NCBI GenBank assembly: GCA_046563655.1
Contig: CM102286.1
Location: 1,116,001 to 1,180,000 of the forward strand
DNA length: 64,000 nt
Source of the DNA: Yuukianura sp. NJ FZ-2021
Lineage: Eukaryota
Direction: 5' to 3'
Position 1 is the first letter of the stretch. Each line of letters starts with the position of its first letter. A model generated the notes under the pieces. The model ran no database searches. It had not been told where the DNA came from and saw only the letters and a program-made list of their open reading frames with translations. Shown in pieces: positions 26,922 to 52,449 of this stretch. The position numbers were made by a program, and so were the translations under genes.

Positions 26922-28519
26922 ATGCGTTTGTCTCTGAATTTACAAATTATGGTTTTCAGTATTTTAATTTTTGCGAAAACCGGGGTTGGACGTGAAAATT
27001 TTTTTGGTAGAACTTTGTTTAACAATTTTTTGAAAAGTGCGTTTCCATCTCTTTTTCCTTCTGGAAATTCTGGAGCAGAGTACGATCCAGTAGACGATTT
27101 CAGGAGATCTACAAACAGTATACTAAGATCATCGGGATACTGGAAACTGAAAAATGGAGATGAAAAGTCGAATCTTGGTCCCGTCACAGGGCCAGTCAAT
27201 GTCCGACGACCATCACTGGAGTCTGTCATGTACTACTGGAACTACTCACTTGTAGTCACATGTGAATCTAGTCTGGAGAGATGGGACTGTCCATATTGCA
27301 AAGTCCTGGGTGGGCACATTCAGATTTTTAAAATTCACCACAACTTAAAACATCACACGAAGTGGATGGTCACAGTTGACTCCCGAAGGCAAGAAATTGT
27401 GTTCACCTTTCGACCTACCTACAATGTTGCCACAATGCTTCAGGATTTAGACATCGGGCTGATTAAACTCAATGGCACGAAATTTGCTATTCACAGCGGG
27501 TTTCTGCAAATGGTCAACGCAGATTGGGCGGACATTGTAAAAAGCCTAAGGCAAACGGTCGAGTTGTACCCAACTTACAAACTCATCATCACAGGTAATA
27601 AAGTTAACTAAAGAAGCGTAATTTGGCAACAGCGCGAAACTTGATCTTCGATTTTTACCTTCAAAGTTTAAAACCTTGACCTTTCAATGTGACCTATAAA
27701 ATTGTTAACCAAAATCATGGTTAAAAGTGGCAACAGCGCTAATCTTAACAGTTCTATTTTTGCCTTTAGAACAGTTAATCCAAGTTAAATTTATATTTGG
27801 CAACAGCGCTAAGTTTGAACTTTTTACTTTTGCTTTGACCTTTAACCATTTACTTAACTCAAGGCTTGACAACAGCACATCTTTACAGTTGACTTTGAAT
27901 TTTAGGCCATAGTCTGGCAGGTCTGGCAATGTCAGCCATCGCCACATTTTACTTAAAGTACAACAACATTTTCCCGCATACGACCATTGAGTTGTACACT
28001 TATGGCCAACCACGAACTGGCAACAAGGCATTCGTCGACTACATGAATAGTCTGGACATCATTTCAGTCCGCGTCGTCAACCGAGGTGACCTTGCAGCCC
28101 GGTTTTTTCCCGCCTTTCTCGGCTACTATCACCATCACAACGAACTTTTTTTGAGTTATGACTCCAGTGGGAATCGAACTGCCCACTACTGCTCAACCGC
28201 AGTGTACGAAGATCCAGAATGTGGACAATCCCGGGGTCCACTCTACTCCATTTCGAGCATATTTTTGGCCTTTATCGACCATGAGACCTACTTTGACACA
28301 GACGCACTCAAGTGTGCTCAGAACAGCATTCTGGAATTTGGGTTACAATATATTTGGCCACTACGCCAGTACATTCCTAAGGAAATCCTGCACAGACTGC
28401 CGCCATTGGCAGTGGAGACCACATTGCTTCAGGATATTGCGTACTTAGTTGAGGGCGGCGGAATTCGAAACTTGTATCAAATCGCTGCTAAACAATCCCA
28501 ATCCAAAGTACTGCTATAG
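26922..28519 (+). CDS. Class 3 lipase (alpha/beta hydrolase), two exons
   Basis: WDCPYC; EIVFTFR; IHSGF; splicing 27594/27906 rebuilds the nucleophile motif ITGHSLAG; YTYGQPRTGNKAF; RVVNRGD; YYHH; DH catalytic His region. Confidence 0.92.
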
Positions 28520-29290: not shown

Positions 29291-32200
29291 ATGGAGAAAT
29301 CTGTGGCTACTGTTCTTACCGAAAAAATATTTGGCAACGGCATCTCATTGACGGTAGAGACATAAACTATGAAATTATATATATTATATTAATTAATTAA
29401 TTTAAATAATAAATTTTTGCAAATTTGAATTAATTAATTTGAATTTGAAAAACTAGAATGGGAAGCACAAAGAAACTACGAACGGAGTCGAACATCATCC
29501 ACAAAAAAATGGAGTCACAAACGGACATCACAAAATTTCGAAAAGTGGGCTAAATGGCGTTGAAAATTTGAAGAAAAAAACTGTAGAGAATTCAAAAAAT
29601 TTGGAAAATTTGGACGGCGCAATCGCAATAGTCGGCATGAGTTGTAGATTTCCTGGAGCAAACGATTCAGAAGAATTTTGGGATTTGTTGATCAACGGTC
29701 GAAATCCGATTGGTCCATTTCCAGCCAATCGACCACCTCCGTTGAACGATGACCAGAAAAACTTTGAAGCGGGATTTTTGAAATGTGCTGTAGATGAATT
29801 TGATGCTAAATTTTTTGGAATGAGTCCCCGCGAAGCTCCATTTGTGGACCCCCAGCAACGGATTTTGCTTGAAGTAGTTTGGGAAAGCTTGGAAAACGCT
29901 GCGATGAATCCAGAAGAGTTGCGTGGGAGTGACACGGGCGTTTTTGTTGGAATTTGGAACGATGAGTACAAAAGCTGGTTTCCCGAATTGGGCTTGGATG
30001 CTGGAGATCATCATCGGATTTACTTGGGAAATGCTTTCAGTGCAACTGCAGGACGCATTTCACACTTCCTTGGACTTCATGGACCAAACTATTGTTCAGA
30101 GTGAGTCAAAATTTCAAAAAACGTAAAAAATCAAATTCTAAAATTTTTCTCCTTTCAACTTTTTTTTAGAAGTGGCTGTTCCAGTAGTGCCGGAGCTCTG
30201 CATCTTGCTTGCCAGGCGCTGCGCAATGGAGACTCAAAAATTGCAATTGCTGCCGGTGTGAATTTGGTTTTGCGATGCATCAATCCGATTGGTGGAGGAA
30301 AACTTCTGGAAGGACCAGTGTTTGCACAGGACTTCAAATGCAAATCTTTTGATGAGAGGTACTATGAACAAAAACAAAATTTGAAAAACTTTTCCAATTT
30401 TTTTTAAATCAGTTTTTAGTGTAGATTAATTACATTTATCTCATTACAGAGCTGATGGATATGTGAGAGCAGAAGGATGTGGATCGGTGGTGCTTCGTCC
30501 ACTAGCTGACGCGATTAAAGCAGGCGACAATATTCACGGCGTCATTCGCGGAATTGCACTAAATCACAATGGCTCGTCCAGTTTTGGAAGTCCAAATGCC
30601 ATTGCAATGGAAATGGCTGCACGGGAAGCTTTGAGAGAAGCAAAAGTAGAACCACGTGACATAAGCTTTGTAGAAGCACATGGGACAGGAACTGCCGTAG
30701 GAGGTACGGTAGACTTTCTAATTTATGAATTGGGCAAAATACAAAACAAATGGCAATTGCACAAACGGGAGTTAGAAAATTTCCTTACTCTGAGGTTTTA
30801 TTGTCATTGCAAAACCCACCGAATAGGCAAATTTTGCAATGACAATAGCACATGGCAAGGAAATCTTCTAACCTCCCGTTTCTGCAATTGCCATTTGTTT
30901 TGCATTTTGCACATTTCATAAGTTGGAGGCTTCATTGTAATGAAATGACAAATTTTTAGTTAACTTCAGTTTAATTAATTAACTTAAACTAGTTTATACT
31001 AACGTAACCTAAATTATGTTTCAGATCCTGCGGAAATCGATGCATTTGAAAAAGTATATTCAGCTGACCGGCGGGAAACGCTGTTCGTGTCTTCGGTTAA
31101 GACGAACATGGGACACTCAGAGTCATGCGCCGGATTGGCGGGGCTAATCAAAGTCCTTCTTTGTTTCAAACACAAACAAGTTCCACCACACCTTCATTTT
31201 CAAAATTTAAACCCGCGAATCAATCTTGACAAAATTCCGGCATGTATTCCCCTCAAACCGACCGCATGGGCACAAGAAAACCGGATTGCCGCAATCAATT
31301 CCTGTGGCATGAGCGGCACCAACGTTCACATGATTGTTCAAGAACCACCGCCAATCAAAACTTTGAAAAAGCACCACATTGCAAAACTACCACAAATGAT
31401 TGGCATTTCTGCAAAATCTGAAGAAGCTTTGGACGCTCTTTGTGCAAAATATGTTTCTCATTTTGAGCAAGATCCGAAACTAAGTTTGAGCGACATCGCT
31501 TTTACACTTAACACCGGAAGAGCAAACTTATCGCATCGAATTGGCCTTGTTGCAAAAGATACGCAAGACTTTATGATAAAACTGACGCAGAAGATGTACG
31601 TCAAAGGCAAAAATTCGACGCAGAAGCCAAAAGTGATTTTTCTGTTCACGGGTCAAGGGTCACAGTACTTTCGAATGGCTAAAAACGTGTACGAAAATTC
31701 GACAATTTTCAAATTGGCGCTGGATCAATGTGAAACACTTTTCAAAAAACATGTGACCATTTCGCTCAAAAAAGTTTTGTGGGAAGATGCTGCCTTGCTG
31801 GACAAAACCGAGTACTGCCAACCTGCAATTTTTTCAGTCCAGTATGCACTCGTTCAACTTTGGAATTCTTTTGGCATTGTTCCTGACATGGTCCTTGGTC
31901 ACAGCGTTGGTGAGTTCTGCGCATCGGTCTGCGCAGGAGTAATGTCACTGGAAGATGGAATGAAGTTAGTTGTCGCCAGAAGCAGACTTGTGAATTCTTT
32001 GGATGGCGGGAAAATGCTGGTTTTGAAAACGTCGCCAGAAAATTTGAAAAATTTGCTTCAGGAGTTCGGTGAATCTGATTTGCATTTTTGTCTGGATGTT
32101 GCCGCCGAAAATTCGGATGAAGAAGTTGTCGTTTCTGGCAGTTTTGAAAATGTTCAAAAATTTGGAAATTTTTGTGAATCAAAAGGACTTAAAACCAAGA

Positions 32201-35200
32201 TGTTAAAAGCTTCTCACGCTTTTCACTCAAGACAAATGGATCCAATCGCACGAGAATTTGGACAAGTTGCTTCAAAAATTAAACCACAAAGTTTCAAATG
32301 TCGATACATCTCTGGTACTTTAGCACGGGAAATCAAATTTAGTGATGAACTTGATGCTAAATATTGGGTGCGTCATTTGCGTGATACCGTGAGATTCCGT
32401 GACGCCAGTATCAAAATTGGACAAATTTTGGAAGAATCTAAAATTTTTGTTGAAATTGGCAGTCAACCGATCCTGTCTGCCCTGACCATGGCCAACATTC
32501 CCAATTGTGCAAAAGACACATTTTGTGCTTCACTGCGCAGAAGTGAAGACGACTTGTCGTCAATTTTGAATTCACTGTCCAAAATGTTCGTAGCTGGAAT
32601 GCAAATTTCATGGAAAAAATGGTTTGGACAAAATTTGGCCAACAAAAAACTAATTCTACCGACGTATCCGTTTCAACGCCAAAAATTTTGGTTTCAGCGT
32701 GAAGATTTTTACGCCGCCGAATCGTCGCATCATCTTGAAATTCATCCGACGCTTGGTCGTTCCCTACCAACGCCATTTTCAGAACATGTTTTTACCCAAA
32801 TTTTGTCAACTCGAAATTTAAAATTTGTTGCAGATCATCGCGTTGCAGAAAAGATAATTTTTCCTGGAACGGCTTACTTGGAAACCATCATGGCCGCGGG
32901 GTGTCACGTTCTCCAAGCCGGGAAAATCCAAGTTCCAGTTTCAATCCAAAATTTTGCAATTGATGCTCCACTGGAACTGGAAAAATCTTGCCAAATTCAA
33001 ACCATTGTGAAACCAATCGGAACAGATGAGGTAAAATTTGAAATTGCAATTCACAAGCAGTCACGTGAAGATACACAGAAGTGGAAAAGACATGCAACTG
33101 CTGCGTTTGTGCCAAGTCACATGCGTCACATGCAAGTTTCTCACAGTGCCCCAATTGATGTAGAAGAAATCAAGAAAAATTCAAAGTTTGTGGAATGCAC
33201 TACGAAAGCTTACGATGCCCTGGGAAAATCTGGATTCCAATTTGGCCCCAAATGCAGATCGATTTGTCGTGCCTGGTTTACAGAAAATGGACTTTTGGCT
33301 GAAATCAAAATGCCGAAAGATTCAAATTTGTTCATTTGTCATCCGGTTGTATTGAACGCAATGGTGGAAACTTTTGTGTTGCATCCAGCACTGGATCTTA
33401 CGGAAGACGTTTTGCTTCCACTTGAATTTGCAGTTGGAATCAGAAAATTTATGCTGCACTCTCAAAATTTTACATCTGAAGTTTATGCATACGGAGCGTG
33501 GGAAAATCGGAATGTGAACGTCACTTTACTGAATTCAAAAAATGAAATTTTGGCAACAATGGAAGGAGTTGAATACATCCAGTCCTGTGCTTCCAAATTT
33601 TTGAGTTCACTGAATCAAGAAAACAGAGATGAACTACCTCTACTCTATGAAACTTGGCGTCCGACCAATCACAGTTCGCCTGGCACGGATTCGACCAATC
33701 ACAGCACGTCTTGCAAAGAACCGACCAATCAGCAACTGACTTCGTCTGTTATGACTTGCGCAAATCCATCCAGGTCTACTTTGCTTGTGCTTGGAGACGA
33801 TTCTCAATTGGAATCAAACCTAACTTCAAAATTGTTATGGCGTGGACGCAATGTCATCAAAGATTATGCGCATGATCAGTCCAGAAATTTAGAAGGAGTA
33901 ATTTTTATGTCGACCGTGATCCCTTCAAGCTTGGATGAAAATCAAGAAAAATGTAAACAATTTGTCAAACTTTGTCAAAAGTTGATTTTGACTTACGAAA
34001 ATGAAAATTCAAAACCAACAATAGTTTTGGTGACACGCGGAGTTCAGTACTTGGAAGACGAAGGACCGGGAAACCCAAACGCAGCTACAATTTCAACTTT
34101 TGTGAGATCTTTTGCCAACGAACACAAAGATTTCAAAGTCAAAGTCATTGACCTTGACCAGAGCGAGGTCAACTTCGATTCGGAAGCAGAAGCAGCATTG
34201 AAAATAATTTGGTCAGAAGACAGCGAAATGTTTACGGCAGTTCGACAAAATCAAATTTTTGTTCAGCGATTGACATTTGCTGAAAAAATGAAACAGCCAC
34301 TTCCGTTTCCAAATTCAAACCGATTTCAAGTACTGACACCAACAACAAAAAATTTGAACGATTTGGAAATTTCTGTGGCGCCAAAAGTGGATCCAATTGA
34401 AGATGAAGTTGAAGTGGCTGTGAAAGCAACTGGAATAAATTCCGAAGATTTGTTTTTTATCCAATCCGAATTTTCGGATTCAACCAATCACGAACCAGGT
34501 TTGGAAGTGGCAGGAATCGTTTCAGATGTAGGACCAACCTGTACAAAATTTAAAATTGGTGACGCCGTTTTTGGAATTGTTGAGGGAAGCGGATTGGCAT
34601 CGCATGTTACAGTATCGTCAAAATTTTTGATGCGAAAACCAGATCACATGACTTTCACTTCGGCTGCTTCAGCTCCAGTTGCCTTTCTAACATCTTTTTA
34701 TGGACTCCAAGAACTTGCAAATTTGAAACCCGGAGAGCAAGTTTTGATTCACAAAGCAGTTGGAGGAGTTGGTCTCGCAGCGATTCAAATTGCAAAAAAT
34801 GTTGGAGCTGAAATTTTTGCAACAGCGGGAAGTCGAAGGAAACGAGCCTATTTGAGATCAATTGGAATCAAACATGTTTACCACTCCAGAAATACGGATT
34901 TTGGAAACGAAATTTTGAAAGACACAAATGGAGCAGGAGTGGACGTCATTTTGAATTCCCTGACTGGACCACATTTTAAAGAAGCTTCACTCAAAGCCTG
35001 TGCTCAAAATGGCAGATTTGTGGAAATTGGGAAAATGAATATTTGGACGGAAGAGGAAGTGAGGAGCATGCGTCCAGACGTTAAGTATTTTGTGGTGGAA
35101 CTTGCTGAAACTTCTCGCAACGAACCAGAAAAATTGAACGAATTGGCGGGAACTGTTGAAGCTGAATTTGAAAAAGGGTCGTACCAGGGGCTTCCACATG

Positions 35201-36520
35201 AAGCTTTTCCTCTGGACATGATCAGAGAAGCTTTCTTTTACTTTCAAGAAGCAAAACACATTGGGAAAATTGTCATCAACATTCCAGAGGCCAAAGTTTC
35301 ACCAGCAGGAAAAATTGAATTTAAAAATAATCTTTTCCATTCACAAAGTACGTACTTGATCACTGGGGGGTTGGGTGGACTTGGGCTTCAAGTGGCCAAG
35401 TGGATGAGTCAATCAGGGGCCAGGAATCTAGTTTTACTGGGACGCAGCAAACCTTCAACCGAAGTTCAAGAAATTTTGAATGTCATGGCTGCCAGTGGAT
35501 GTCGAACGGTAGCTCTGCAAGGAAATGTTGCAATTTACGAAGAAATGGAAACGTGTTTAAAATCTTTGGAAACTTTAAATTTCCCGCCACTTCGTGGAAT
35601 TATGCATGCGGCGGGAGTACTAGCAAGTGGAGTTGTGCAAAATTTGACATGGGAAAAATTTGAAACTGTTTTTCGGCCTAAAGTTCAAGGGACTCTGAAT
35701 TTGCACAAATTGACCCTAGGTTGTGACCTCGAATTTTTTTTGATGTTTTCAAGCATTGCTGCTATTTTTGGCAGTCCAGGAATTGCCAACTATTCAGCGG
35801 CCAACGGATTTTTAGATTCATTCATGAACTACCGACATGCAATGGGGCTTCCAGCCACGAGTATAAATTTTGGACCTTGGGCAGAGGTACGATTCAAAAT
35901 TTTCAAAAAACTCAGATAAAACGCAAATCCAAAAAAAAATTCAATTTTTAACATTTTTTTTTTTTGCAAATTTTGTGTAGGCTGGAATGGCTGTCACTGA
36001 TTTCAAAGACGGAGATTCTGGAATTTTCCATTTTCCACCCGCTCAAGGCATCTCTGCAATAGAAAACATTCTTCGAACCGGAATTAAGCGGTCGACGGTT
36101 TTGAAAGTATCGGATTGGAGTACCGTGAAACACAACTTCCGACTCGGTAACTACTTGGACGAGATTCAATCAACTACCAAAGTCGAACCTTTGAACAGCG
36201 ATTGGCACGTTTCTGTTTTGGAAGAAATCCAAACTTGTTCTACATTGGCAGAAAAACAGACCAAAATCCAAAATTTTTTGATGAAAACTTTGAAAGAGAC
36301 GCTTCGAGTGGCAGAAAAGGAACAATTAGATCCAGATCAAAATATTTTTGAACTTGGAGTTGACTCGCTCATTGCCATCGAGTTGCGCAACCGCCTTCAA
36401 GCAACTTTTCAAAAAATGCAACTAACAGTAAGTGCTTTGCAATACTCAAGCGTCCAGCGTCTTGCTGCTTACTTAGTTGGTTTGATGCAACTCGAAAAAC
36501 AAAATCAAGGTCAACCGTAA
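29291..36520 (+). CDS. Type I reducing polyketide synthase A: KS-AT-DH(variant)-ER-KR-ACP, no cMT and no release domain
   Basis: Exons 29291-29353, 29457-30100, 30170-30358, 30450-30703, 31025-35886, 35981-36520. KS: ESGCSSS, EAHGTGT, KTNMGHSE. AT: GHSVG and HAFHS. DH: HRVAEKIIFP. ER: GGVGLAA. KR: TGGLGGLG and NYSAAN. ACP: GVDSL. Start codon less certain. Confidence 0.95.
30711..30932. mobile_element. MITE-like fold-back element in a PKS-A intron
   Basis: ~100-bp imperfect inverted arms (gcaaaatacaaaacaaatggcaattgca...attgtcattgcaaaa / ttttgcaatgacaat...tgcaattgccatttgttttgcattttgc) around a ~17-bp spacer. Confidence 0.8.
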
Positions 36521-37098
36521 TGGTTTTCTTGACAAACTTTGTTCATAATCTTAGTGTTTTAAGTTTTGAAAAAACGGGTTTACTGTTAAATAAAAAAAAC
36601 TAACAAAAATAAAATTCCCAGTTTAATTGTCTTTTTCTAAATCCGGTTCCTTTAAATGAGGATGTCAAATTTCTACTGCGTTGTTTTCAACAATTTAATT
36701 CAGGTTCTTTTAGGTTAGTAAAATTGGTGCACTTTGTTACTGAGAACATAAGTTCCTTTAGTCTTTTAAAACCAAAATTAACGTTGACGTCAATTCGCTT
36801 AAAAACTCTCATTTTTCTAAGAAATTTCAAAAAAATACTAAAAAAAAATTGATCACTATAATAATTCTTGGAATTTTGTTAGTTCCCACGCTACGTGGGA
36901 AGTGTTTTACGTTCGCGTGACAAACTATTTGGATTCATTTTTTCAAAACACCCACTCATAATTCTGGAAAAAGCATGTTACTGCAAAAACGTTACTCCCA
37001 CTAAAAAATTTCCAACACGAATCCAGGTCAAACGATGGAAAAGTTACCCAATTTCGTATTTGCTTAAAATTTTTGAATTTCCAGAAAGAAACTCACGA

Positions 37099-37460
37099 TT
37101 TTATTAAGTAGCGAAAGCTACTTTATGCATCCAAACTGTCTGTCTGTCTGTCTGACCGGCCATTCCTGCAAATTATCTTTAAAGCAGCTCAACATTTCCA
37201 GGATCCGTTTTCATCTATAGATACCTTGTTACCTGTTGAATAGTCACAATCCCTTGAGCCAACATCAAAGGTCAAGGTCAACCGCTTTTATCTCCGGTAG
37301 CATAGAAAATGACCTCTAGAAGAGTTGTTCATCCCTTCGAAGTCAAGAAATTTCCTGTATTCACAAAAATTGTTAACTTTTCTGTATGTCATATCATAAC
37401 TCACCGCGGTTCGTGATTGAAGCGTCATCTTTCGCTACTCCGGGTTACAACCGGGTTTTT
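37099..37460 (+). mobile_element. DINE-1/HINE-like non-autonomous Helentron-type element
   Basis: 11-bp subterminal inverted repeat (agtagcgaaag 37107-37117 / ctttcgctact 37429-37439), (GTCT)n microsatellite ~37136-37155, short imperfect 3' hairpin, T-runs at both ends. Confidence 0.7.
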
Positions 37461-38153
37461 ACAACTGAGATGCCGAACATTTATGATTTTGTTCTGCTAA
37501 AATTTATCGAACTTCGAACAGGTTTTGTGATGAAGGTGAGTTTCTTTTTTCAAAGAAACCCCAAATTTGTCAAATGTAAACAACTCCAATATTTGGTTTT
37601 GGCAAAACGGTTTTGTACAGAAAAATGATATCAAGTACGTGAGAAAATTAACTTGAACGCATAATTTTAAAAGTATTTTTAAGTTTCAGGAAACACAAGT
37701 TGTGTAACTACTGCTCACAATTTGAAAAAATGCTTTTAGTTAGTTGTTTGAACAAAAAGTGGTTTATTATCTCACAAAGTCGAATTCAGATGAGACCCAA
37801 TATTTATTATAATTGGAACACGATTAATTAACTTTTACCACTGGAAAACTCCTAACAAGGAATTAAAAACCTAGAAAAAAGTTGGATGTTTAAATTGCTA
37901 CTTGCCTTGGGTTGACAACTTTTCATTTCCACGATTGCTACCAAACTCGTCCAGTATATTTTGAGAAACAAGGAAGAAGCTAGCTTTAGTTTAATTCCGT
38001 CAGTTCACCAATCAACTTCAAACTTCAATATTTCAAAAACTAACTTCAAAAACAAACAGCAATTAAGAAAAAGTACTTTTACAGGGTGTGAAGACAGTCC
38101 AATTGTGATTAACTCGCACTTTCTACTGCAACCTTGTTTTTGGAACAACGGAA

Positions 38154-41100
38154 ATGAAAGGTAAAAGTTGTCCATTTAAAAGATTCGATAAAAAGATGTT
38201 TTTTAATAAAAAAAAAGTGTTTAAAAAAATATTTTTAAAAAAAATTCAGTGAACATATAAAAAATTGAACGTAATTAAACATCATCAGCTAAAAAAAAAC
38301 TAAAATTCATCCCAAAAATAACGATTAATTACATTTTAGTTCATTTAAAATTGCAAAGTTTTCAACTTTGTACATAAGTTTTAACCTTGATTGTAGATGT
38401 TGAAATTTTTCCTGTTATTTTTGGAAATGGGAAGTTTGTTTTTTAGCATCAGCGTAAAAAGTAGTCATTCGACTTCTGGAAAGTTTCAAAATCCAATTTT
38501 CTTATAAGTGTCCAATAAATTGCAAATCAAGTTTAAGTAGTTTAGTATTTTTTGAAACATTTTGGTCATTATAGTTGAAAAAGAGTGATTTCTGATTCTA
38601 AACTAGTTTGATGGTGAAAACTAGTTCTGTGGACAACTTTGTTGTTGTTTGATGGCTCAATATCTACATAGGTGTCAAATAGTTGTCGAAGTGCAATTAA
38701 CAATGACTGACAACTTACAGTAACAATTACATCCTACTTTGTACTTTTAATTTTGTAGAACCCCAGTGCTGGGTGACCTTGGCTCAAAGCGATGCGGAAG
38801 GATGGGCAGCCACTGTCCTTGCAAGGTCAATTCGGAATTCCCTCACTACTCGGCCTCTGACAATTGTAATTTCGGAAAATGTGACGCTACCAATGAAGTA
38901 ATTAAAGTTATACTAATTTATATTCAACCTGTTTATGTGATCTCATACCACTGCTTCGAATGAATGGCTCCGAAATGAAATGCTACGAATGAATTGGTGC
39001 GAAACCAATTGCTGCGAATGGCATATTTACTGAACGGCAAATTAAAAATAGTAGCTAAAACAAAAATTTCCTACAAAAAATGTTCACCTAGCGTAATGAG
39101 TCTTACAACTCCAACGAGTGTAATTTTATAATTGTTAGCCCTAAAGCTAACTTTACAATTGTTAGGTTAACTTAACCTCCTTACTGTGAACTAATACAGT
39201 TCGGAGCAACTTTGTTGTCTTTCGGAGGAATTGGGTTCGTAGGGATTCATTCGGAGCGTTTCATTTGAAGTAATGTCGTGATACCGTTTAGGTAAACTCA
39301 TTTATGTAAACACTGTTTAGGGTATTGCTGCAGAAGGAATTCGACGCAGTGTTTCGATTTGATTTGGCTGAAGTAGGTGGACATGCCAATTGTGGGCTAT
39401 TGTGGCTCTGGAACTTACGGAGCTGGACAAAATGTGTTTATGTTGACGCAAACTCCTACGTAAGACAAAGCTTCAAAAAATTGAGATTTAAACAAAATTA
39501 ATTTTTAACTTGCGCCAATGGTTCATCGTAGATGCTCAAAAATTGTGACGATTTGTTTCAAAAACCATCGTTTTCTGCTGTACAAAACGAAAATGGTACA
39601 TTCTCTACGCAGCTATTCGTTTTCAGGCCAAATGTCACTGAATTTGACCAACTTTTGGAACTTGCTCAAGATGCCAAAGGTTAAAAATTTAACTCAATTA
39701 ATACTGCATGTGCTATGAAACATTTGAAATTTCGAAATCTCAATTTTAAAACTTCAAATTTCAGGAGATGTTGTGAAAATTCTCAACTGGAACTTCAACG
39801 AATCCTTTGCCAACCCCAAAAATCAAATTCGCGATTCCGTGCTATGGAAAGTTACTGAGCTTGGAAGCAATTCGAAGTAAGATGCGGGCTACATACTAGT
39901 TTATGTTATATGTGAATACTGTTCGTCCTACTAAACTAAAAGTATTAAAATATTGTATTAGTATTATATTTTATTGTTGTTTATATAATTTTGCATCTTA
40001 TAGTCACTTGGATCCAAACATGATAAGTTTTGATGGACCAGCTTGGAAAAAAACCGGGACGAATGACGCCATCAACGAAATTGTGCACAAGTGGATTGCA
40101 ACTTTTGTGCACGAAGTCATTCCACACATCAAAGGAATGAAGGTACACATAATATTACTTAATACATATATTTCATATTATTACATATTAATATATTTCT
40201 ATATATTATACATTAATATTGTGGCGTCTGGCAAAAATTGGTCTATCCCTACCCGAATTATTGTCAAAAACATTTTTTTTAATTTTTTAATTTTAGATTT
40301 AATTTTAATTTAATTTTAGAATATTTTTAAAATTTGCCCAAATATTTACTTACAAGATTAGGATTGCATGGAAGAAATGAGTTGCGAGAGCCGCTCTTTC
40401 ACCTCATGTAGAATAGGAAATGATAGGTCAATGGTTACAGCTCTTCCCGGATTGAAGCGATGTGGGTTCGAATCCCACTCGGTTCATTAATTTTTCTACA
40501 CGCTGGCTTGTCTCTCAAGCCATGTGAGCCTTGAATCTCACAATGTATGATGTTTTAAATGTTATGTAGGATGAAGGTACGAGGAAGGCATTGATGGAGG
40601 CCATTGAAGAACGTCAACTTCCTGTCGTCAATGGTCCAGCGTCCACTCGTCCACAAAATCTGGAGGATCTTGGAACTTTGAAAGACGCCATTGCAGTAGT
40701 GGGCATGAGTTGTCGCTTCCCTGGAGCCAACAACGCCGATGAATTTTGGGAAGTGCTTGCCAGTGGCAGAGATCCGATCCGAAAATACCCGGCTGACCGT
40801 CCACGTCCACCGAGTCACCGATACACTGTTGAGGATGAAAAGGCTTTTGAGGCGGGATTTTTGAAATGTGCGGTAGATGAATTCGATGCAAAGTTTTTTG
40901 GAATTAGTCCCCGCGAAGCTCCGTTTGTGGATCCTCAACAGAGGATTTTGCTTGAAGTGATTTGGGAGAGCCTTGAAAATGGAAACATCAATCCACAAAA
41001 GTTGCGTGAAACTAACACTGGCGTGTTTGTTGGGATTTGGCAACAGGAGTATAATCAGCATTTCCCAGATTCACTTGCATTCACACCAAATGAATTTCAC

Positions 41101-44100
41101 CATCGATATTTGGGCAATGCCTTCAGTGCTACCGCCTCTCGTATCTCACATTTCCTTGGACTTTATGGACCAAACTACTCAATCGAGTAAAAAATATGAC
41201 AAAAGCAGCAAAAATTTTAAAAATAGAAAAAAAAAGTTTAGCATTTCTGAATTTCTCAAAATTTGATTTCGTAGAAGCGGATGTTCAAGCAGTTCCAGCG
41301 CAGTGCATCTCGCTTGTCAGAGTCTGCGTAGAGGTGAAACTACGCTGGCAATTGCCAGCGGTGTGAACCTGGTTTTACATTTCGTGAATCCAATTGGAGG
41401 AGGCGACGGAGATGCTGTTGTGCTCTCAGCTAATTTTAGATGCAAAACTTTTGATGAGAGGTTCATTTTTAAACTAAAAAAAAATTTTCAAAAAATTCTT
41501 TTAAAAAAAAACTAAATTTTTTTTTTGTTTTTTATTTTTGTTGCGAAACAGTGCTGATGGTTTCGTGCGAGCAGAAGGTTGTGGTGCAGTCGTATTGAAA
41601 CCTCTAGCACACGCCATGCGCGATGGAGACAACGTGATTGGCCTAATTCGCGGGACGGCCCTGAACAATGACGGCCCTGCGACCAGTTTTGGAACGCCAA
41701 ACGCCAGAGCTCAAGAACGAGCTTACCGCGAAGCTCTGGCCGACGCTGGAGTAAAACCGAACGAAGTTAGTGTCGTAGAAGCTCATGGAACAGGAACGAT
41801 TGTGGGAGGTAAAAACAAAAATTTAGATTTTTTTTCTTTTTCTGAACAGGTTATGCCATAACTCCTGCTTTTAAAAAATTGTTTGTTTTGAATTTTTTCT
41901 ACGATTTGTTAGCCTCGCACCTTGTAAAGTAAATGCGATTGGTCCAAAAGTTATTTTTTTTAAATCAGACTTATGGCATAACATGTTACAGCATTTGTAC
42001 ATATGACCGTTATAGTAACCTTGGATGAAACAAAACCGTTAAAACATTTTTTTTCAATAAGTTTTGCATTTCAAAATTTTTTAGACCCCACTGAAATGTA
42101 CGCCATTGGACAAGTTTACTCTGAAGACAGAACTGAACCACTTTTCGTCAGTTCTGTAAAAACGAACATTGGGCACTCCGAGGCATGCGCAGGAATGGCT
42201 GGGCTGATCAAAATCCTTCTTTGTCTCAAAAACAAACAACTTCCACCGCACCTTCATCTTGAAAGACTAAATCCCCGAATCAATCTTGAATCCATTCCGG
42301 CCATAATTCCACAAGAAGTGACTGCCTGGACAGCCGAAACAAGAATTGCAGCAGTCAGTTCATTCAGCATGAGCGGAACCAACGTCCACTTAATTGTTCA
42401 AGAAACTCCCGAAATTTTGAAATCTCCGGCCAAAATCAAAAAAGATGAAAACTCAAAACCGTTTGACATGATTACAATTTCGGCCAAATCGGAAGAAGCA
42501 CTGGAAGCTCTTTGTCAAAAATACGTAACCTATTTGGAGGAAAATTCAAATTTGAATATCAGCGATATCGCTTATACGCTCAACACTGGAAGGGCAAACA
42601 TGGCACACCGAATTGCTCTTGTAGCAAAAGATACTGCCCAAGTAGTTTCAAAATTACAGAGTCGTTCGTATGTCATTGGAAAAGCACCAACACAAAAACC
42701 CAAAACGATTTTCCTGTTTACGGGTCAAGGGTCACAGTACTTCAGTATGGGCAAAAATTTATACAACATGTCACCAGTATTTCGGTCGGCATTGAGAAAA
42801 TGTGACACCCTTTTTAAAAAATACTTGCGCTGTTCTCTCAAAGACGTTTTGTGGGGAGATGCAACTTTTTTGGAACAAACAATTTACTGTCAACCGGCAA
42901 TTTTTTCGATTCAATTTGCACTTTTCCAACTGTGGAACTCATTTGGAATTTTCCCAGACTTTGTTGTTGGTCACAGCGTTGGTGAGTTCTGCGCATCAGT
43001 TTGCGCAGGCGCACTGTCACTTGAAGACGCAATGCGATTGGTTATCGGCAGAAGTAAGTTGGTGGATTCTCTTGAAGGCGGGAAAATGATGGTCGTCAAA
43101 ACATCACCAAGTGAAACACGCGGATTGATTCAAGAATTCACGGCGTCGATAAAAGAAAAAGACGTTTGGATTGACGTCGCCGCTGAAAATTCAATGGAAG
43201 AAGTCGTCGTTTCTGGAACGGAGAAAAACGTATCAGATTTCGGCACTTTTTGCTCATCACGTTCTTTTAAAACACAGATGATCAGTGCATCTCACGCTTT
43301 CCACTCTCGTGAGATGGATCCAGTGTTGCCTGAGTTTGGTGCATTGGCGTCTCGAATCACCCCGAGCAAACTCAATTGTCGTTACATTTCTGGAACATTA
43401 GCGCGCGAATTGTCTGAAACCGATTTCGACTCTTGTTATTGGATGAGACATTTGAGAGATACTGTCCGATTTTGCGATGCAATCAAATATGTCAATCGCT
43501 TATTTGACGAACCCAAAGTTTTTGTTGAAGTCGGAAGTCAACCGATTTTGTTAAGCCTGACAATGGCAAATTTGTCTAGCACTACAACTGCAACATACTG
43601 TCCATCACTACGCAAAAGTGAAGACGATTTGACCTGCGTGCTGAACTCACTTTCAAAAATGTTTGTCGGTGGAGTCGATATATCTTGGGATAAATGGTAT
43701 CCCGAGGCCAGGAAATTATCTTTACCGACTTATCCATTTCAGCGCCAAAAATTTTGGATTCGAGATGAAGACGAAGGCATTCCGATTCCGCCTATGCTCC
43801 ACCCAATTCTTGGACGTCATTTGCCAGCTCCAGTGTCAGATCACGTTTTTGCACAAGTTTTGTCATCTAAAGAGTTAAAGTACGCTGAAGATCATCGTGT
43901 CGCTGAAAAAATTATTCTTCCAGCCGCAGCGTATTTGGAAACAATCATGGCCGCTGGATGCCAAATTCTGCAGGGCGGCAGAGTTCAAGTTCCGTTCAGC
44001 GTCGAAAATTTACAAGTCGAAGCAGCTTTGGATCTGACAAAAAGTTGCCAAATTCATACAATTGTGCGGAGTTTAGGAGAAGAAGGTGACATTAAATTTG

Positions 44101-47100
44101 AAATTGGAATTCACAAACAAGTTTCCCGCGAAGATTTGGACAAATGGAAACGTCATGCAGTGGCATCATTCTCTCCAAGTTTGCATGTTGCCGCTACTGA
44201 AGATTTTGAAATTCAGGAAATTTTGAATCGTTTAGAGCTAGTTGAAAAAATATCTGAAGCGTACGACGCAGTCGCAAAAGCGGGAATTCAATTTGGGCCA
44301 AAATTTCAATCAATCATCCGCGCCTGGAAGGCAGAGACGGAACTTTTAACTGAAATTGAAATGCCGCCAGATTCAAATTCATACATTTGTCATCCAATTG
44401 TCCTAGACGCTATGATTCAAACTTTTGCTCTCCGGAATGCCATTAAGTCACGTGACAAACAACAAGAACTTCAACTTCAACTACCAATCAGCATCAAGAA
44501 ATTTACTTGGTTTTCGCGGGAACCTACTCAAAAAGTGTTTGCTTATAGTACATGGACTGGAGATGCTCAAATGCAAGGAACCGTTACACTTTTAAGCGAA
44601 ACTGGACAAACTCTAGGCATAATGGACGGCTTAGAACTGATTTCCACCACAGTTGCAAATTTTCTGCGCGTCATGAACTCCGAATCCAACTTGTTACCCG
44701 GGTTTCTAGAAGAAGTTTGGCGCCCGACTTCCGGAATTACACGAAACAGACAAAATCCGGCCAATTTTGAAATTGTTGCATCAACATACATAAACCGAGC
44801 TTATGGAAGTGTTGGACAAACGTACTTTGACCGATGGTTTGAAAGATATGACAAGCAATTTAGTCGGTTTCTCGTTCGGGCTGTAATTGAATGCAAATGG
44901 CCATGGGGACCAATTGGAGCAAAAATTCGAACGGGTGATTGGACAGCAGTGGCTCCTCCTGGACTTCTTATATGCAAAACGTCACGATTACAACAAATTT
45001 TAACAGAATATGATTATTTGAAAAAAGTAGGAGAAGATGAATTTGAAATTTTAAAAGATTTACCGCCTTTGGATCAATGTGAAGCTGAAATTGAGGAGGC
45101 ATGGGAAGCTAAAGATGAGTCGAGCCAAGGTGATACTTTTTCCCAGGAGTTTGCAAGACGCTGTGGAACTTACATCACTCCCGTCCTACAAGGATCGGTA
45201 ACGCCGATTGCCTATTTGTTTCCCGCCGATCCGCTGGAACCCGGAGCGGTACGATTTTATAACGAAGGTAAATTTTGAGAATTTAAATTTAAAGAAATGA
45301 AAGTTCACTCTTATAAGAACTTTACGATTGGCACGAAAAACTTTTTTTTACCGACCAAATCAGACTGAGTTTTGTGAGGCTCACATGCTTTGTGGACAGA
45401 GTGAAAAATAGTGTAGAAAAATATTGGAACCGATTGGGATTCGTACCCACATCTCTTCAAGTACAGCGAAATGCTCTAACCCTTGAGCTATCTGGTCCTT
45501 CGTTTGACAACGCCACTGTTGCCAAACTCAGCCGTTTCTAAACTGCAAGTTTTGCTTTAGTTTGAATAATGTTGTTTATTAGGTAAAGGAATTCGAGAAG
45601 CTGCAGAGATTGCAGCAGCGCTCATCATTGACAGCGTCTTAAGCGCCCACGGTGCTCCTGGAACGTTACGAATTCTGGAAGTTGGGGCTGGAAGTGGAGC
45701 AGCTTCTGTATTCGTCCTGGAAGGATTAGCAGCAGAAAACATTCCATTTCACTACACATTTACAGACATCTCACCTCTCTTTTTACATGAAGCCAAGAAA
45801 AAATTTACATCCAAAAACATAACTTTTTCATTGTTCAACATTGAAGAAGATCCGATTGGTCAAGGCTACGCTCCCGAAGAATTTGATATCATTCTTGCCC
45901 ATAATGTCATTCATGCTACAGCCGATGTTCAAAAAAGTCTCAAAAATTTAAACTTGATACTTCGGAACAACGGACTTCTGGCACTCGGCGAAACTTTTAA
46001 AGACGTTGTCCATTGTTCACTTTCCTTTGGTTTTCTGGACGGTTGGTGGCGATTCACCGATGACCGAAAAAATTCTCCGCTTTTAAGTCACGAACAATGG
46101 AAAACTGCATTCGAAAAAGCTGGATTCGGAGATGCTGCTGCCTGGACAATCTATAACGACAACTGCGGAGCCGTGATTGGTCGAAAGGAGAAAATTCAGC
46201 CAACCGACGAAAGTTCAGCGTCAAATTCAAATGCATGGCTCTTTGTCTCAGATCAATCACAACTTGAACTGAATTTGAAACAAAAAGCGGGATTGGCGGG
46301 AAGAAAATGTTTGAATTTTGAGGACGAAGTTCCAGAGGGCCTCGAAACGGTCATTTTTCTTTGGACTTCTCCAGTCGTATACTCCGAAAATCAAGTCAAA
46401 TGTCAACAACTTTTAAATTTTTGCCAAAAGTTGATTCAGAAATACCAAGACATCAAGGTCAAACCGAAATTTATTTTAGTGACACGCGGAGTTAACTACT
46501 TGGGTGACGCAGGATCGGGAAATCCAAATGTCGCTACGAGTTTTTCCTTTGTCCGTACATTTGCAAATGAACATCCAGATTTGAATATTGTTGCGATTGA
46601 CCTTGACCAAAATGAGGTCAATCAAGAACGAGAGGTCACTGAACTTTTTGCAACGATTTGTTCCAAAGAAAAAGAAGCGATAAAAGCTATCCGCGAAGAT
46701 AAAATTTTTGTGCAGCGTTTGGTTTCCTTGGATAACCGAAATTTAGCCATTCCAATGCCAAATTCAAATCGATTCAAAATTACCAATCCACCGTCCAAAA
46801 GTCTCCACGATTTACAAATTTCTGTGGCACCAAAAATTGAACCAGTTGAAGATCAAGTTGAAGTGGCAATTCGTGCAACTGGTTTGAACTTTCGTGATCT
46901 TTTTCTCATTTTGAGACCAGAAGGATTCGACATTCCAGAAAACATTAACATGGAACCAGGCCTGGACATTTCTGGAGTCGTTTCAGCCGTTGGACCAAAT
47001 TGCACAAAATTTCAAATTGGAGATGCCGTTTTTGGATCAGTTCCGGGAGGCGGTTTGGCATCGCACATCATTACATCTTCAAAATTGTTAATTCGAAAAC

Positions 47101-50100
47101 CACAAGAAATGACTTTCCCCGCTGCAGCAACAATTCCTGTAGCATTTTTGACAGTTTTCTACTCATTTCACGAATTGGCAAAACTTTCTCGTGGAGATCG
47201 AGTTTTAATTCATGTTGCAACTGGTGGAGTTGGATTAGCGGGAATTCAAATGGCGAATCACGTGGGTGCTGAAATTTTTGCAACAGCGGGAAGTCGGAGG
47301 AAGAGAGCCTACTTGAGATCAATTGGAATCAAACATGTTTACCACTCCAGAAATACGGATTTTGGAGACGAAATTTTGAAAGACACAAATGGAGCAGGAG
47401 TGGACGTCATTTTGAATTCCCTGACTGGACCAAATTTTAAAGAAGCTTCACTCAAAGCCTGTGCTCAAAATGGCAGATTTGTGGAAATTGGAAAAATGAA
47501 TATTTGGACGGAAGAGGAAGTGAAGAGCATGCGTCCAGACGTTAAGTATTTTGTGGTGGAACTTGCTGAAACTTCTCGCAACGAACCAGAAAAATTGAAT
47601 GAATTGGCGGGAACTGTGGAAGCTGAATTTGAAAAAGGCGCGTATCAGGGGCTTCCACATGAAGCTTTTCCTCTGGACATGATCAGAGAAGCTTTCTTTT
47701 ACTTTCAAGAAGCAAAACACATTGGGAAAATTGTCATCAACATTCCCGAGGCCAAAGTGTCACCAGCGGGAAAAATTGAATTTAAAAATAATCTTTTCCA
47801 TTCACAAAGTACGTACTTGATCACCGGAGGGTTGGGTGGAATTGGGATGGAAGTGGCCAAATGGATGAACCAATCAGGAGCCACCAATTTGATCCTCGTT
47901 GGTCGAAATCCACCATCGGCAAGTAGTCAGGATGTGCTGGATTGTTTGAATAAGAATGGCTGTCGAGCAGTAGCTATGCAAGCAGATATCGGCAATTACG
48001 ACGAATGTGCTGCAGTTTTGAATTCTATCAAAAATTTAAATTTCCCGCCACTTCGTGGAATTATGCATGCCGCAGGAGTTCTTGCGGATGGAATTGTGAT
48101 TAATCAGTCATGGGACAAATTTGAAGCAGTGTTTAAACCTAAAGTCAATGGAACTTGGAATTTGCACAACTTGACCTCTGGATTTGACCTTGAATTTTTT
48201 ACAATGTTTTCAAGTATGGTCTCAATTTTTGGTGGACCGGGACAAAGTAATCATACGGCTGCCAATCGTTTTATGGATTCATTTGCACATTACCGAAATT
48301 CACTTGGGCTTCCCGCCAACAGCATAAATTTTGGTCCATGGTCAGATGTAAGAAATTTTTTTCATTTTTTCACTTCTTTTCAGAAATCTGAGTTTTTCAG
48401 TTTTTTTTTTTGGAAATCTGTTTTTCACTGTTTTTTTATAACTCTGCAGGTTGGTGTAGCTGCAAATCTTAAAATGACGCAGGATGGATACATCGGCATT
48501 AAATTTTTCACTCCTGCGCAGGGACTGCTTTCGATCGAACACATGCTAAAAACTCATCGACGTCAAGCAATTGTTGCTGAAGTGTCGGATTGGAACTTTT
48601 TGAAACAACTTTGTCGACTTGGAAATTTTTTTGACGAAATCAAAACAACGACATCCAATTCTGCTAATGGAATTGAACAATACAAAGCCATTATTGAAGA
48701 AATTAAAAATGCTACACCAGAAACCCGTCAAGCCAAAATTGAAGACTTTCTGGAACAAGCTTTGAAAGAAACACTCCGAATTCCAGAAAATGAGCAATTG
48801 GATCGTGAGCAAAACTTTTCAGAAATCGGAGTCGACTCACTCATGGCAATGGAGTTGCGCAATAGGCTTCAAGGAATGTTAGGAGACAAGCAGTTGACAG
48901 TCAGCGCTCTACAAGAAAACAGAACCATACGCAGCCTTTCTGCGCATATGGCAAATCTCATGAATTCCGACGCATCCGTCGTTTCAGTGGAATCGTTAGT
49001 CACCCAAGACATAATTTTACCAGCCGACATTCAAGTTACGACGAAACTCCCGCAAAAACCGAGCGAATTCAAGAATATTTTGTTGACAGGAAGCACGGGT
49101 CACTTGGGGGTCAACTTGATTCCGGCTTTGCAGAACCAAAATTCAAATTTGGTGTTGCATTGTATCATTCGCGGGAAAAATTCAGAAGATGCTGAAAACC
49201 GGTTGAAGAAAACACTGAATTTGTATTCTTTGGGAGAAAAAGTAAATTTTGAACGAATCCAAATTTTGGCGGGAGATTTAACCAGACCGAATTTCGACTT
49301 GACTTTGGAACAATACGAGGCTTTTGCAGAGAAGATTGATGCTGTTGTGCACTGCGCAGTAAAGTCAAATCATTTAGAAGAATACAATTCGTTTGGCGAA
49401 GGGAGTCTGCGCAGTAACAACGTTTTAGCGACCGTGAACGTTTTGCGTTTTGCTGCTACCGGAAAAACTAAAGCCGTTTTGTACGCGTCCTCACTTTTAG
49501 CTGCAACTGAAGTAAGAGAAGACGGTTGCTTAGTTGAAAATTTTCCGGCTGAGGAAGATGTTGGCACTTCGATCAAAAATGGTTACGTTCTGTCAAAATT
49601 CGTTTCGGAAAAGTTAATGTCACAAGCCCTTGACCGTGGAATTCCGGTAACAGTTATCCGGTACGCCAGTATCGTCGGAAACAGCATAACCGGTTTCATT
49701 CCTACCGGAAAAAATCATTCATGGAGCATCATGACTTCTTGTTTTCGAATCAAAAAATTTCCAGCTATGAATCAAAATGGAATTCCAGTTATGGCTGTTG
49801 ACACAGCGGCGCAAGTTACTGCACAAATTTTCTTAACCGATTCAATGGAAACGGGAGTTTACAATTTGTCTGGAAAATCAATAATTTCCGAAGAGGAAAT
49901 GGCTACAGGCATAGCAAAATTTGGAATTGTAGGAGAATTTGTTCCGTTTTCAGAGTGGCGGGATACAGTTTTTGAAAATATGGATAAAAATGAATTGGCG
50001 CCATTTTTTAGCATTTATGGTGACGATGAGAATACACAGGCTCAAGCATACCTTGGCATGCATCCATTGGCGACTCAAATTGCAGCACTTGAATTTAATT

Positions 50101-50219
50101 CAGTTAGTGAAAAAGTGCGCCGAAATTGTCCCGAGTTTGAAAAAAGTATTGTTTCAATGGAAGATCTTATGCAGCGCCATCTACAATTCCATTTTGATTC
50201 ACTTACAAGCCAACCCTAA
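38154..50219 (+). CDS. Type I reducing polyketide synthase B with N-terminal glycogenin-like (GT8) domain: GT8*-KS-AT-DH-cMT-ER-KR-ACP-R
   Basis: Exons 38154-38160 (tentative), 38759-38897, 39321-39459, 39532-39679, 39765-39876, 40004-40142, 40570-41186, 41275-41460, 41552-41808, 42085-45267, 45583-48347, 48450-50219, all phase-compatible. KS: ESGCSSS, EAHGTGT, KTNIGHSE. AT: GHSVG, HAFHS. DH: HRVAEKIILP, LDAMIQ. cMT: ILEVGAGSG, YTFTDIS, HNVIHAT. ACP: GVDSL. R: TGSTGHLG, GYVLSK. Confidence 0.92.
38759..40142 (+). other. Five exons encoding a degenerate glycogenin-like GT8 domain at the N-terminus of PKS-B
   Basis: QCWVTLAQSDAEGWAATVLARSIRNSLTTRPLTIVISENVT; LWNLRSWTKCVYVDANSYMLKNCDDLF; LFVFRPN; KILNWNF; KWIATFVHEVIP. 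Collinear with the glycogenin pattern AFVTL...ALVLG.SL...TTR.L / W.L..Y.KCVF.DAD..VL.N.DDLF. Confidence 0.85.
38943..39281. mobile_element. MITE-like element with ~50-bp inverted ends and ~15-bp cgaatgaa-type subrepeats, in a PKS-B intron
   Basis: tcataccactgcttcgaatgaatggctccgaa... matches the reverse complement of ...ttcggagcgtttcatttgaagtaatgtcgtga. Similar subrepeats occur at ~61150-61260. Confidence 0.65.
40416..40540 (+). mobile_element. tRNA-derived SINE-like element, copy 1
   Basis: A-box-like taggtcaatggtta and B-box ggttcgaatccc. The tail tttttctacac...catgtgagcct is shared with the copy at 45362-45498. Confidence 0.65.
41846..41986. mobile_element. Small MITE-like element with ~30-bp inverted ends in a PKS-B intron
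   Basis: acaggttatgccataactcctgcttttaaaaaa versus the reverse complement of the right end, acatgttatgccataagtctgatttaaaaaaa. Confidence 0.6.
45362..45498 (-). mobile_element. tRNA-derived SINE-like element, copy 2
   Basis: Reverse complement GGACCAGATAGCTCAAGGGTTAGAGCA...TTGAAGAGATGTGGGTACGAATCCCAATCGGTTCC has a tRNA-like head with A and B boxes, followed by the tail shared with copy 1. Confidence 0.7.
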
Positions 50220-50312: not shown

Positions 50313-51096
50313 TTATGGATCTTGATTCTGTGAAACAAAAAAGTTTCCAGCCACAGGAGCCGTCGAAAGCCGATTTTCTTGCACAAATTTTTTCCAGTCC
50401 AAATTTGTTATGTAAGGCAACCGTCCGGTGTTTTCAAGCGTCAAATTCAATTTCCCGCCAAGTTGCTCATGGACCAGAAACACATAACGTCGAAGGCCAA
50501 CTCCTTTTGGTGGCATTGGACCAAAGTACTTGACCTTGACCTCACCGTGACCTTGACCTTGACCTCTTTTCTCAGGTTGAATGTTCACTTGAAGCCAATG
50601 TGGAACTGAGCGATGAATTGGATTTGCTCGACTCACGGCATCTATCCCTACAAAGCAAAATTTAAAATTTTCATTAAAATTTTGCTTTTTTTTGTAATTT
50701 TTATTAAAATTTTGCTTTTTTGTCATATTTGTACCGAGAAATGCCAGCATGTAGACAGCATCTACTTTTCCCATCCACTGAATCCAGTAAGGCTGTTCCG
50801 AAGTTTGACCTGGGGTCAACTCCATTCCTGGGTACACGGGAGTAGTTGTGCCGTAAGTCACCCATAACATTTCTTTTGGACTTCTATCCAAAATGTCCGG
50901 TACAATTTCAGCTGATAAAAATGCGTCTTCAACCATCATCATCTGACAAGTGACCAGGTTCGGCTTAAACATCTAGCAAAATTTTTAAATTTTGAAAATA
51001 TTAAATTATGAAAAATTCAGTTTGAGTTCATCTAAAGAATTGCTGTTACAATCTTACCAATTCCAGTAGCGCCAACAAATGCCAAAACCGATTCAT
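50313..51096 (-). CDS. Phosphatidylethanolamine-binding protein (PEBP/RKIP family), probably secreted
   Basis: IVPDILD; PGMELTP; HWLQVNI; YFGPMPPKGVGLRRYVFLVHEQ; PVAGNFF; short hydrophobic first exon MNRFWHLLALLEL. Confidence 0.9.
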
Positions 51097-51637: not shown

Positions 51638-52449
51638 TTATAGTTTGAGCTCAACGGTTTTTGAGTATGTTGTAGTAGAGAGCTCAGACATATTTGGTTT
51701 CAACTTTTGAATTTCGTTATACACCGAGTCTTGTATCGTTTTTTGCAGAGCTGGATCACTCAGTGGAAGTTTGGGATAAATTCGGATATCCAAATTTTCA
51801 AAACCAAAAGTCATACTAATTTTTGACAATTTGAACCAGTTGCCAGGCGACGGTAGAACCGTGCCGGATCCACGCAGATCTGCACCGTAGATGGCTCCAT
51901 AAGCAGAACCTACCACCAAAAGTTAATATCAAAATCAAAAATTTAGCTTCTAAAGTTATGTTTTTTGTTACCTTCGCTGATTGGCGTAGGAACTTGAAAA
52001 AAACTTGCAAAGTAATATTTCAGAACGTAGTTGGTGGAGGCACTCATGTTGCCCACAAAATTTTCAAAGGTCATGTCTCTTGTCAAGGGGTCAATTTGGA
52101 GCCCTTTGACCTTGAACGTCGAGAGCCCACTGAAGGTCAACTTGCTTAAAATTAGTTCATAAAAACCTAGGTTTGGAGACAAAGGATGCGGAAATTTCAA
52201 AGGAATGTCCAGGGGAAACACAAATGGATCCAGAAATGGAATCCCATTGGCTGCACTTCCCTTTAACATCACTCGGCGCCAATTTTCAAAAGATTGGAGC
52301 ACAAGAGTTTCCAGCGGAATTGTTCCAGTTCCTGGAAGGGGTACTGAAATTCCATTTCGATCTTCTTCCAGGTCAGAGGTCACTTGTGATAAAAATGCTA
52401 TTTTAGACACCAGCAATAACAAAATATGACAACTTTTAAAAATTTTCAT
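51638..52449 (-). CDS. Haemolymph juvenile-hormone-binding/takeout-like lipid carrier
   Basis: Signal peptide; GIPFLDPF; LTFSGLSTFKV; two exons; about 250 aa. Confidence 0.65.

Follow-up and report, generated by a model that had tools for sequence, protein, structure and literature searches.

Polyketide synthases (PKSs) of bacterial type are already known in animal genomes from genome surveys. For the springtail Folsomia candida, the part of PMC5490193 available to us counts 30 clusters of type I PKS genes, most of them interpreted as transfers, which the accessible part of PMC10764717 also mentions, and for bdelloid rotifers the consulted part of PMC11258130 describes horizontally acquired type I PKS genes. 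The two adjacent genes described here, PKS-A and PKS-B, lie in a stretch of 64,000 nucleotides from Yuukianura sp. NJ FZ-2021 (GenBank assembly GCA_046563655.1, contig CM102286.1, positions 1,116,001 to 1,180,000 of the forward strand; hereafter the window, in whose numbering all coordinates are given) and are likewise bacterial-type PKS genes in an animal genome. No named springtail or rotifer protein was found among the 120 best matches listed or in a further protein search. The pair is best read as tandem paralogues of a single-module, fully reducing type I PKS of bacterial ancestry that are now spliced genes in a eukaryotic genome. In this pair, PKS-B represents the ancestral form and PKS-A a derived, trimmed and faster-changing copy. 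With a probability of roughly 60%, the two are separate synthases that make different products.

Among described enzymes, PKS-B (KS-AT-DH-cMT-ER-KR-ACP-R) has the domain order of cyanobacterial-type single-module PKSs such as P0207, a 'probable polyketide synthase' of Crocosphaera subtropica, and P0229 of Moorena producens. Identity to these bacterial proteins is 31–35% over KS-AT-DH (BLAST) and they carry the same His in the KR, but they have no introns, mostly end without a terminal R and lie a branch of 1.04 away, and an N-terminal GT8-like region such as the one discussed below for PKS-B is not on record for them. PKS-A (KS-AT-DH-ER-KR-ACP) has the order of mycocerosic acid synthase (MAS), and the NCBIfam model Pks2 spans its whole large exon with 730.6 bits; as this is far under the cut-off of 2400, PKS-A is not an equivalent. 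MAS uses methylmalonyl-CoA, whereas the AT of PKS-A reads HAFH, and PKS-A also differs in the missing Asp of its DH. The fungal highly reducing PKS LovF is built KS-AT-DH-cMT-ER-KR-ACP, introduces methyl branches from S-adenosylmethionine (SAM) and has a malonyl-specific AT. LovB is among the solved matches of the KR (7cpx, 96 bits), but the PKSs of the window differ from the fungal enzymes in being nearer to bacterial sequences and, for PKS-B, in ending in R. Finally, AFPKs such as EcPKS1 belong to the same wide superfamily of type I synthases and are encoded by animals; according to the accessible part of PMC10764717, they group with animal fatty acid synthase (FAS) and mostly end in a TE. 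We rejected an identity as AFPK for the window genes: the KR is nearer to MAS, its best solved match (114.9 bits), and to DEBS than to FAS (78–81 bits) or EcPKS1 (60.7 bits), Pfam finds no TE in PKS-A or PKS-B, and all named homologues are bacterial.

We assembled the gene models manually from open reading frames (ORFs) and GT-AG sites. The window has a GC content of 33–42%, and its long coding blocks are interrupted by short GT-AG introns. PKS-A (29291..36520, plus strand) comprises six exons (29291-29353, 29457-30100, 30170-30358, 30450-30703, 31025-35886 and 35981-36520) encoding 2183 amino acids, with a single, terminal stop codon (36518-36520) and no internal one. The core of PKS-B (40570..50219, plus strand) also has six exons (40570-41186, 41275-41460, 41552-41808, 42085-45267, 45583-48347 and 48450-50219). 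All 16 modelled introns, five in PKS-A, five in the PKS-B core and six in the model of the GT8-like region, run from GT to AG. Four introns are common to both PKS genes in site and phase, as the sequence-only reading of the locus had noticed: before S-G-C-S-S-S (phase 2), after FDE(R/S) (phase 2), after HGTGTxVG (phase 1) and after FGPWxx (phase 0). That reading placed these sites correctly but erred in two flanking motifs, since PKS-B has FDES instead of FDER and HGTGTxxGG is in fact HGTGTxVG followed by D, the second G having come from reading through the intron. Beyond the common sites, PKS-B has one extra intron (45268-45582) at the start of the cMT and PKS-A one near its 5' end. Polyadenylation-type AATAAA motifs stand at 36589 and 36608, 69 and 88 nucleotides past the stop of PKS-A, and 67 nucleotides past the stop of PKS-B, and this like distance favours two transcripts.

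Some introns hold further elements. Within the 321-nucleotide intron of PKS-A lies a 55-nucleotide inverted repeat (30717-30771/30873-30927) with 89% complementarity and arms 101 nucleotides apart, which resembles a small foldback element. Inside PKS-B introns, the Rfam tRNA model matches at 40417-40486 (plus strand, 33.8 bits) and 45426-45498 (minus strand, 36.1 bits), and Rfam finds nothing else in the window. ARAGORN calls the second alone, as tRNA-Tyr, and does not call the first. Either genuine tRNA genes or repeats derived from tRNAs could account for them.

Close relatives of the pair are a handful of proteins, all from metagenomes. To the KS-AT-DH exon of PKS-B, P0123 is 62–65% identical, P0004 about 50%, P0121 44%, P0122 39–42%, and P0124 and P0125 35–38%; to the cMT-ER-KR exon, P0243 is 60% identical. 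Named homologues are all bacterial, mostly cyanobacterial, at 28–39% identity, and a metagenome scan with universal PKS motifs yielded 75 loci with 28–39% identity and no close relative among them. Several relatives are partial ORFs that begin and end where exons of PKS-B do: P0123 has 1059 residues against 1060 in the corresponding exon, P0243 has 911 against 921, and P0004 continues past the position of the cMT intron as a hydrophobic, non-aligning stretch. This coincidence argues that the common introns predate the split into PKS-A and PKS-B and that the family is present in several uncultured eukaryotes. In a tree of the KS-AT-DH part, built from 21 hand-chosen rows (family members, 12 bacterial sequences and P0127), PKS-A and PKS-B are sisters (support 91/90), followed in order by P0123, P0004, the pair P0121/P0122 and the group of P0127 with P0124/P0125; a branch of 1.04 separates the family from the bacterial (cyanobacterial) PKSs. 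Together with the four shared introns and a protein identity of about 58–61% outside a converted tract described below, the sister position bears out the proposal that the pair arose by duplication.

The distribution of domains over this tree indicates which copy changed. A cMT is present in PKS-B, P0004, P0122, P0124 and P0125, and an R in PKS-B and P0124, so that the build of PKS-B, with cMT, KR His and R, is the ancestral one. The branch leading to PKS-A is 0.56 long, that of PKS-B 0.27. The asymmetry runs one way: in PKS-A, cMT and R are gone, the KR residue has switched from His to Tyr and, uniquely, Asn stands for the Asp of the DH. P0121 is also devoid of a cMT, so loss of this domain recurs in the family.

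Pfam recognizes KS, AT, DH, ER, KR and ACP in PKS-A and, in PKS-B, the same six domains together with a methyltransferase and NAD_binding_4; the six common domains all score above the cut-off in both proteins. Both also carry SGCSSS, EAHGTGT, N(M/I)GHSE, GHSVGE and GVDSL, which we take to be the catalytic motifs of KS, AT and ACP. The AT motif is SHAFHS in both, so that the HAFH previously read in the two ATs, a marker of malonyl specificity, holds up in the alignment of PKS-A with PKS-B. The cMT region of PKS-B (44700..46127, plus strand), split by its extra intron, contains the SAM motif ILEVGAGSG and matches Pfam Methyltransf_12, _23 and _31. In place of these roughly 430 residues, PKS-A has a Ser/Thr-rich linker of about 45 (33670..33795, plus strand, from the alignment of the two). 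The terminal R of PKS-B (49074..50156, plus strand), a thioester reductase, scores 150.9 bits with NAD_binding_4 and 212.2 bits with the NCBIfam thioester reductase model TIGR01746, just under the cut-off of 213.35, and its TGSTGHLG fits the NAD-binding pattern TGxxGxxG. PKS-A ends shortly behind its ACP (36278..36475, plus strand, Pfam PP-binding, with GVDSL): the protein stops 15 residues past the match, which reaches residue 165 of 179 in the exon, and neither within the gene nor behind it does tblastn detect traces of a cMT or an R. The KR of PKS-A (35347..35886, plus strand) keeps its catalytic Tyr (TAT, 35791-35793), whereas that of PKS-B (47808..48347, plus strand) has His at this position (CAT, 48252-48254), one base apart and opposite the Tyr of MAS in the alignment with that enzyme. 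The domain contents and KR residues that the sequence-only reading had assigned to the two genes are thereby borne out.

The two copies also differ in the DH. In PKS-B (43800..44657, plus strand) the catalytic Asp is kept (GAC, 44406-44408) in the motif LDAMIQ, whereas PKS-A (32743..33606, plus strand) has Asn there (AAC, 33355-33357) and Glu instead of the subsequent Gln, so that its motif reads LNAMVE; the His of HxxxGxxxxP is kept. At this place (motif HPxxLDAxxQ) seven of the eight aligned family sequences read LDAxIQ, PKS-A being the sole exception. In a search against solved structures, the Asn of PKS-A stands opposite the Asp of the fluvirucin DH and opposite an Asn in the deposited CurK variant 5tz7, presumably an engineered active-site mutant. 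The DH of PKS-A probably no longer works as a dehydratase.

The His in the KR of PKS-B proved to be a regular feature of the family. Six of its nine members carry it (PKS-B, P0004, P0121, P0122, P0124 and P0243), and Tyr is found in PKS-A, P0125 and P0314. In 388 fetched PKS proteins (P0001-P0389), a regular expression recovered 507 KR motifs, KRs that do not fit the expression being missed. Among these bacterial PKS homologues, 70 KRs with His have a cMT motif in the same module and nine do not, whereas for Tyr the numbers are five with and 421 without; the remaining two motifs carry Gly and Ser. DH and ER motifs accompany the His-type KR in 32 modules. A missing KR Tyr is usually read as 'inactive'. 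Given how common His is in the family and in bacterial cMT modules, PKS-B would show no loss at this position, and its His is better regarded as no defect. Since many fully reducing modules keep the His, a dead KR would leave downstream domains idle in many lineages, and it seems unlikely that this residue marks a dead KR. The KR of PKS-A appears instead to have changed from His to Tyr after its cMT was lost. The active-site changes had been described as complementary between the two genes, a view that these counts do not support as it stands: with His as the common state of the family, only PKS-A of the two is altered.

The two copies have also exchanged sequence. From the C-terminal ER to the start of the KR, a tract of PKS-A (34807..35363, plus strand) and its partner in PKS-B (47268..47824, plus strand) agree in 541 of 557 nucleotides (97%), compared with 127 of 191 and 178 of 256 in the flanks (about 66–70%) and 46–79% in 60-codon windows of DNA outside the tract. 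Windows lying entirely in the tract agree at 0.90–0.98 of third codon positions, those lying entirely outside it at 0.28–0.70. Such sharp edges combined with near identity at silent sites are the signature of gene conversion. The tract evidently was copied recently, which indicates that the copies still exchange sequence. Compared with P0243, both copies of the tract score about 0.70, the flanks of PKS-B 0.65 and 0.67, and those of PKS-A 0.52 and 0.54. As the tract is as near to P0243 as the PKS-B flanks are and the PKS-A flanks are further away, PKS-B was likely the donor, which suggests conversion from PKS-B to PKS-A.

From the observed gene structure, domains, residues, relatedness and converted tract we infer two independent enzymes with different products. 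In PKS-B, the malonyl-specific AT would load the extender unit for condensation by the KS, the cMT would methylate the alpha carbon with SAM as donor, the His-type KR, the DH and the ER would reduce the chain, and the terminal R would release it as an aldehyde or alcohol. PKS-A would most likely make an unmethylated chain that is still hydroxylated, and the release of this chain would fall to another enzyme. The gene immediately ahead of PKS-A (26847-28519, likewise plus strand, at least two exons) encodes a class 3 lipase (Pfam Lipase_3). That this lipase acts in trans as the release enzyme of PKS-A is speculation.

Several points weigh against this interpretation. PKS-A without a release domain fits an enzyme that depends on a partner as well as one released in trans. 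The gene models derive from genomic sequence alone. Support for the sister position of PKS-A and PKS-B is moderate, and the amino-acid make-up of PKS-A deviates. The counts of KR His with cMT are not independent events, because the modules are related through common ancestry, and within the family P0121 (His without cMT) and P0125 (Tyr with cMT) break the pattern. In the portions of the literature that our search brought up, there is no statement on the activity of a His-type KR or on its link to the cMT. Finally, the markers of an arthropod setting are weak, namely a JHBP-like gene (51943-52542, minus strand) at 30.1 bits against a Pfam cut-off of 29.2 and one transporter exon whose single homologue match is a springtail protein with 32% identity.

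The sequence-only reading had considered that PKS-A hands its ACP-bound chain to PKS-B for methylation and reductive release; in trans, the chain would pass to the KS of PKS-B and be extended there as well. Collaborating PKS pairs do occur in fungi according to the accessible part of PMC8251887, the two genes are adjacent on the same strand, and PKS-B would supply the cMT and R absent from PKS-A, which ends so soon after its ACP. Adjacency and the missing release domain of PKS-A are, however, the sole points that the sequence itself seems to offer in favour of a hand-over. Pfam finds no docking domain (PF08990) in either gene, although short helices could escape detection, and no SAT (PF16073) in either, so that the mark of a fungal-type acceptor is lacking. 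Moreover, the His of PKS-B is ancestral and not a complementary loss, PKS-B is self-sufficient on paper, and the loss of the cMT recurs in the relative P0121. We regard a collaborating pair as doubtful, and nothing in the sequence yet appears to demonstrate that the two enzymes work together.

That PKS-A is a duplicate in decay, or one that has already lost its function, is improbable. Its branch is twice as long as that of PKS-B, its amino-acid make-up deviates, its DH has lost the catalytic Asp, and cMT and R were deleted without trace. At 140 alignment columns the other seven sequences are all identical; PKS-A agrees with them in 126 and departs in 14, whereas PKS-B and P0123, assessed likewise, each keep 126 of 127. 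However, the losses are concentrated in one domain, 10 of the 14 falling in the DH, and the Cys and His motifs of the KS, GHSVGE and HAFH of the AT, the KR motifs and the Ser of the ACP are all kept. A frame of 2183 codons without internal stop and with five intact GT-AG introns, at about 40% protein divergence from PKS-B, would be unexpected without selection. The earlier suggestion that PKS-A is degenerating thus holds for its DH and fails for the rest of the gene, where frame, splice sites and most invariant residues are intact.

The remaining alternatives concern the region upstream of the PKS-B core. Three exons there (38721-38897, 39321-39459 and 39532-39679, plus strand) each have glycogenin-1 as their best PDB match, in order and within residues 4-156: the first covers residues 4-44 (E 0.16–0.41), the second 88-106 (E 0.75) and the third 109-156 (E 0.0015), the last being the only match with E <0.01. 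Unlike glycogenin, the region reads D-A-N at the DxD motif (VDANS opposite MDADT of glycogenin-1), and it is probably not a working glycosyltransferase. The whole modelled GT8-like region (38652..40142, plus strand) was extended by frame and GT-AG sites only, and its further exons (38652-38671, 39765-39876 and 40004-40142, plus strand) are unsupported. Pfam has no match for the five exons taken singly (the 20-nucleotide first exon left out); 39765-39876 and 40004-40142 have no glycogenin match, so that the C-terminal third is unrecognisable. Since the last exon ends and the KS exon at 40570 begins in the same phase (0), fusion of this region to PKS-B is frame-compatible and a possible candidate, and a start of PKS-B at the Met codon at 40594 is just as possible. 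If part of the PKS-B protein, the region would be an unusual PKS domain with a broken metal site. A literature search for PKS-glycogenin fusions, judged by titles and the beginnings of abstracts, showed none among the papers listed. The statement that PKS-A has no GT8 domain was upheld by tblastn of the PKS-B region against the rest of the window, which gave only matches at chance level. A resemblance of the first PKS-A exon to the GT8-like region was rejected, as 670 of 2000 shuffles score as high.

How the GT8-like region begins is relevant here, because the frame of exon 38721 opens at 38707 without an in-frame ATG and needs an upstream donor in phase 2. Candidates are the 20-nucleotide mini-exon at 38652 and a GT (GTAATG) at 36517 that overlaps the stop of PKS-A. 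One could picture a two-step assembly line in an animal, formed either by one transcript through the donor at 36517 or by a dead glycogenin-like domain serving as landing site for the ACP of PKS-A, in which PKS-B would extend the unmethylated, hydroxylated chain of PKS-A once, methylate it and release it reductively; we consider this a long shot. Least likely is a single bimodular gene in which PKS-A is spliced from 36517 to 38721 to give PKS-A, the GT8-like region and PKS-B as a two-module line: the donor phase suits the acceptor, and the only other start for this ATG-less frame is the mini-exon, but by a rough estimate chance alone yields such a phase match in about one gene of 12, the intron would measure 2204 nucleotides, five times the longest other (49–427 nucleotides), the AATAAA motifs follow the PKS-A stop at the same distance as that of PKS-B, and we know of no precedent for a GT8-like insert of 245 residues between ACP and KS.

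Around the PKS pair, Pfam identifies the JHBP-like gene, a PEBP gene (50313-50972, minus strand), genes for ankyrin repeats and DJ-1, and a transporter of the MFS type (53610-55272, plus strand, Sugar_tr); a second MFS transporter (56624-57378, minus strand) was assigned by eye. Both transporters carry ESPRWL, which we take to be typical of organic cation transporters. With the spliceosomal introns, the JHBP-like, PEBP, ankyrin and MFS transporter genes speak for a eukaryotic host, probably a small arthropod. A further ORF (14038-15081, plus strand; 347 residues, without introns) stands about 14 kb ahead of the two PKS genes. Pfam gives no match for it; among solved structures it aligns with the cyclase portion of drimenol synthases (residues 307-522 of 526, E 1.7e-29) and with AstC. 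By this similarity the ORF reads as a terpene cyclase. Terpene cyclases of the drimenol synthase type are found in bacteria and fungi, and the ORF may be a second acquired gene of specialised metabolism.

To our knowledge, no product has been characterised for any bacterial-type PKS of animal genomes. With an ancestral enzyme beside its trimmed copy, the locus provides a clean pair for study. Two points go beyond what the sequence-only reading had proposed, the candidate glycogenin-like region in frame before PKS-B and the putative role of the KR His as a regular companion of the cMT; if the His-type KR is active and tuned to alpha-methylated substrates, this would matter for the sequence-based prediction of KR activity.

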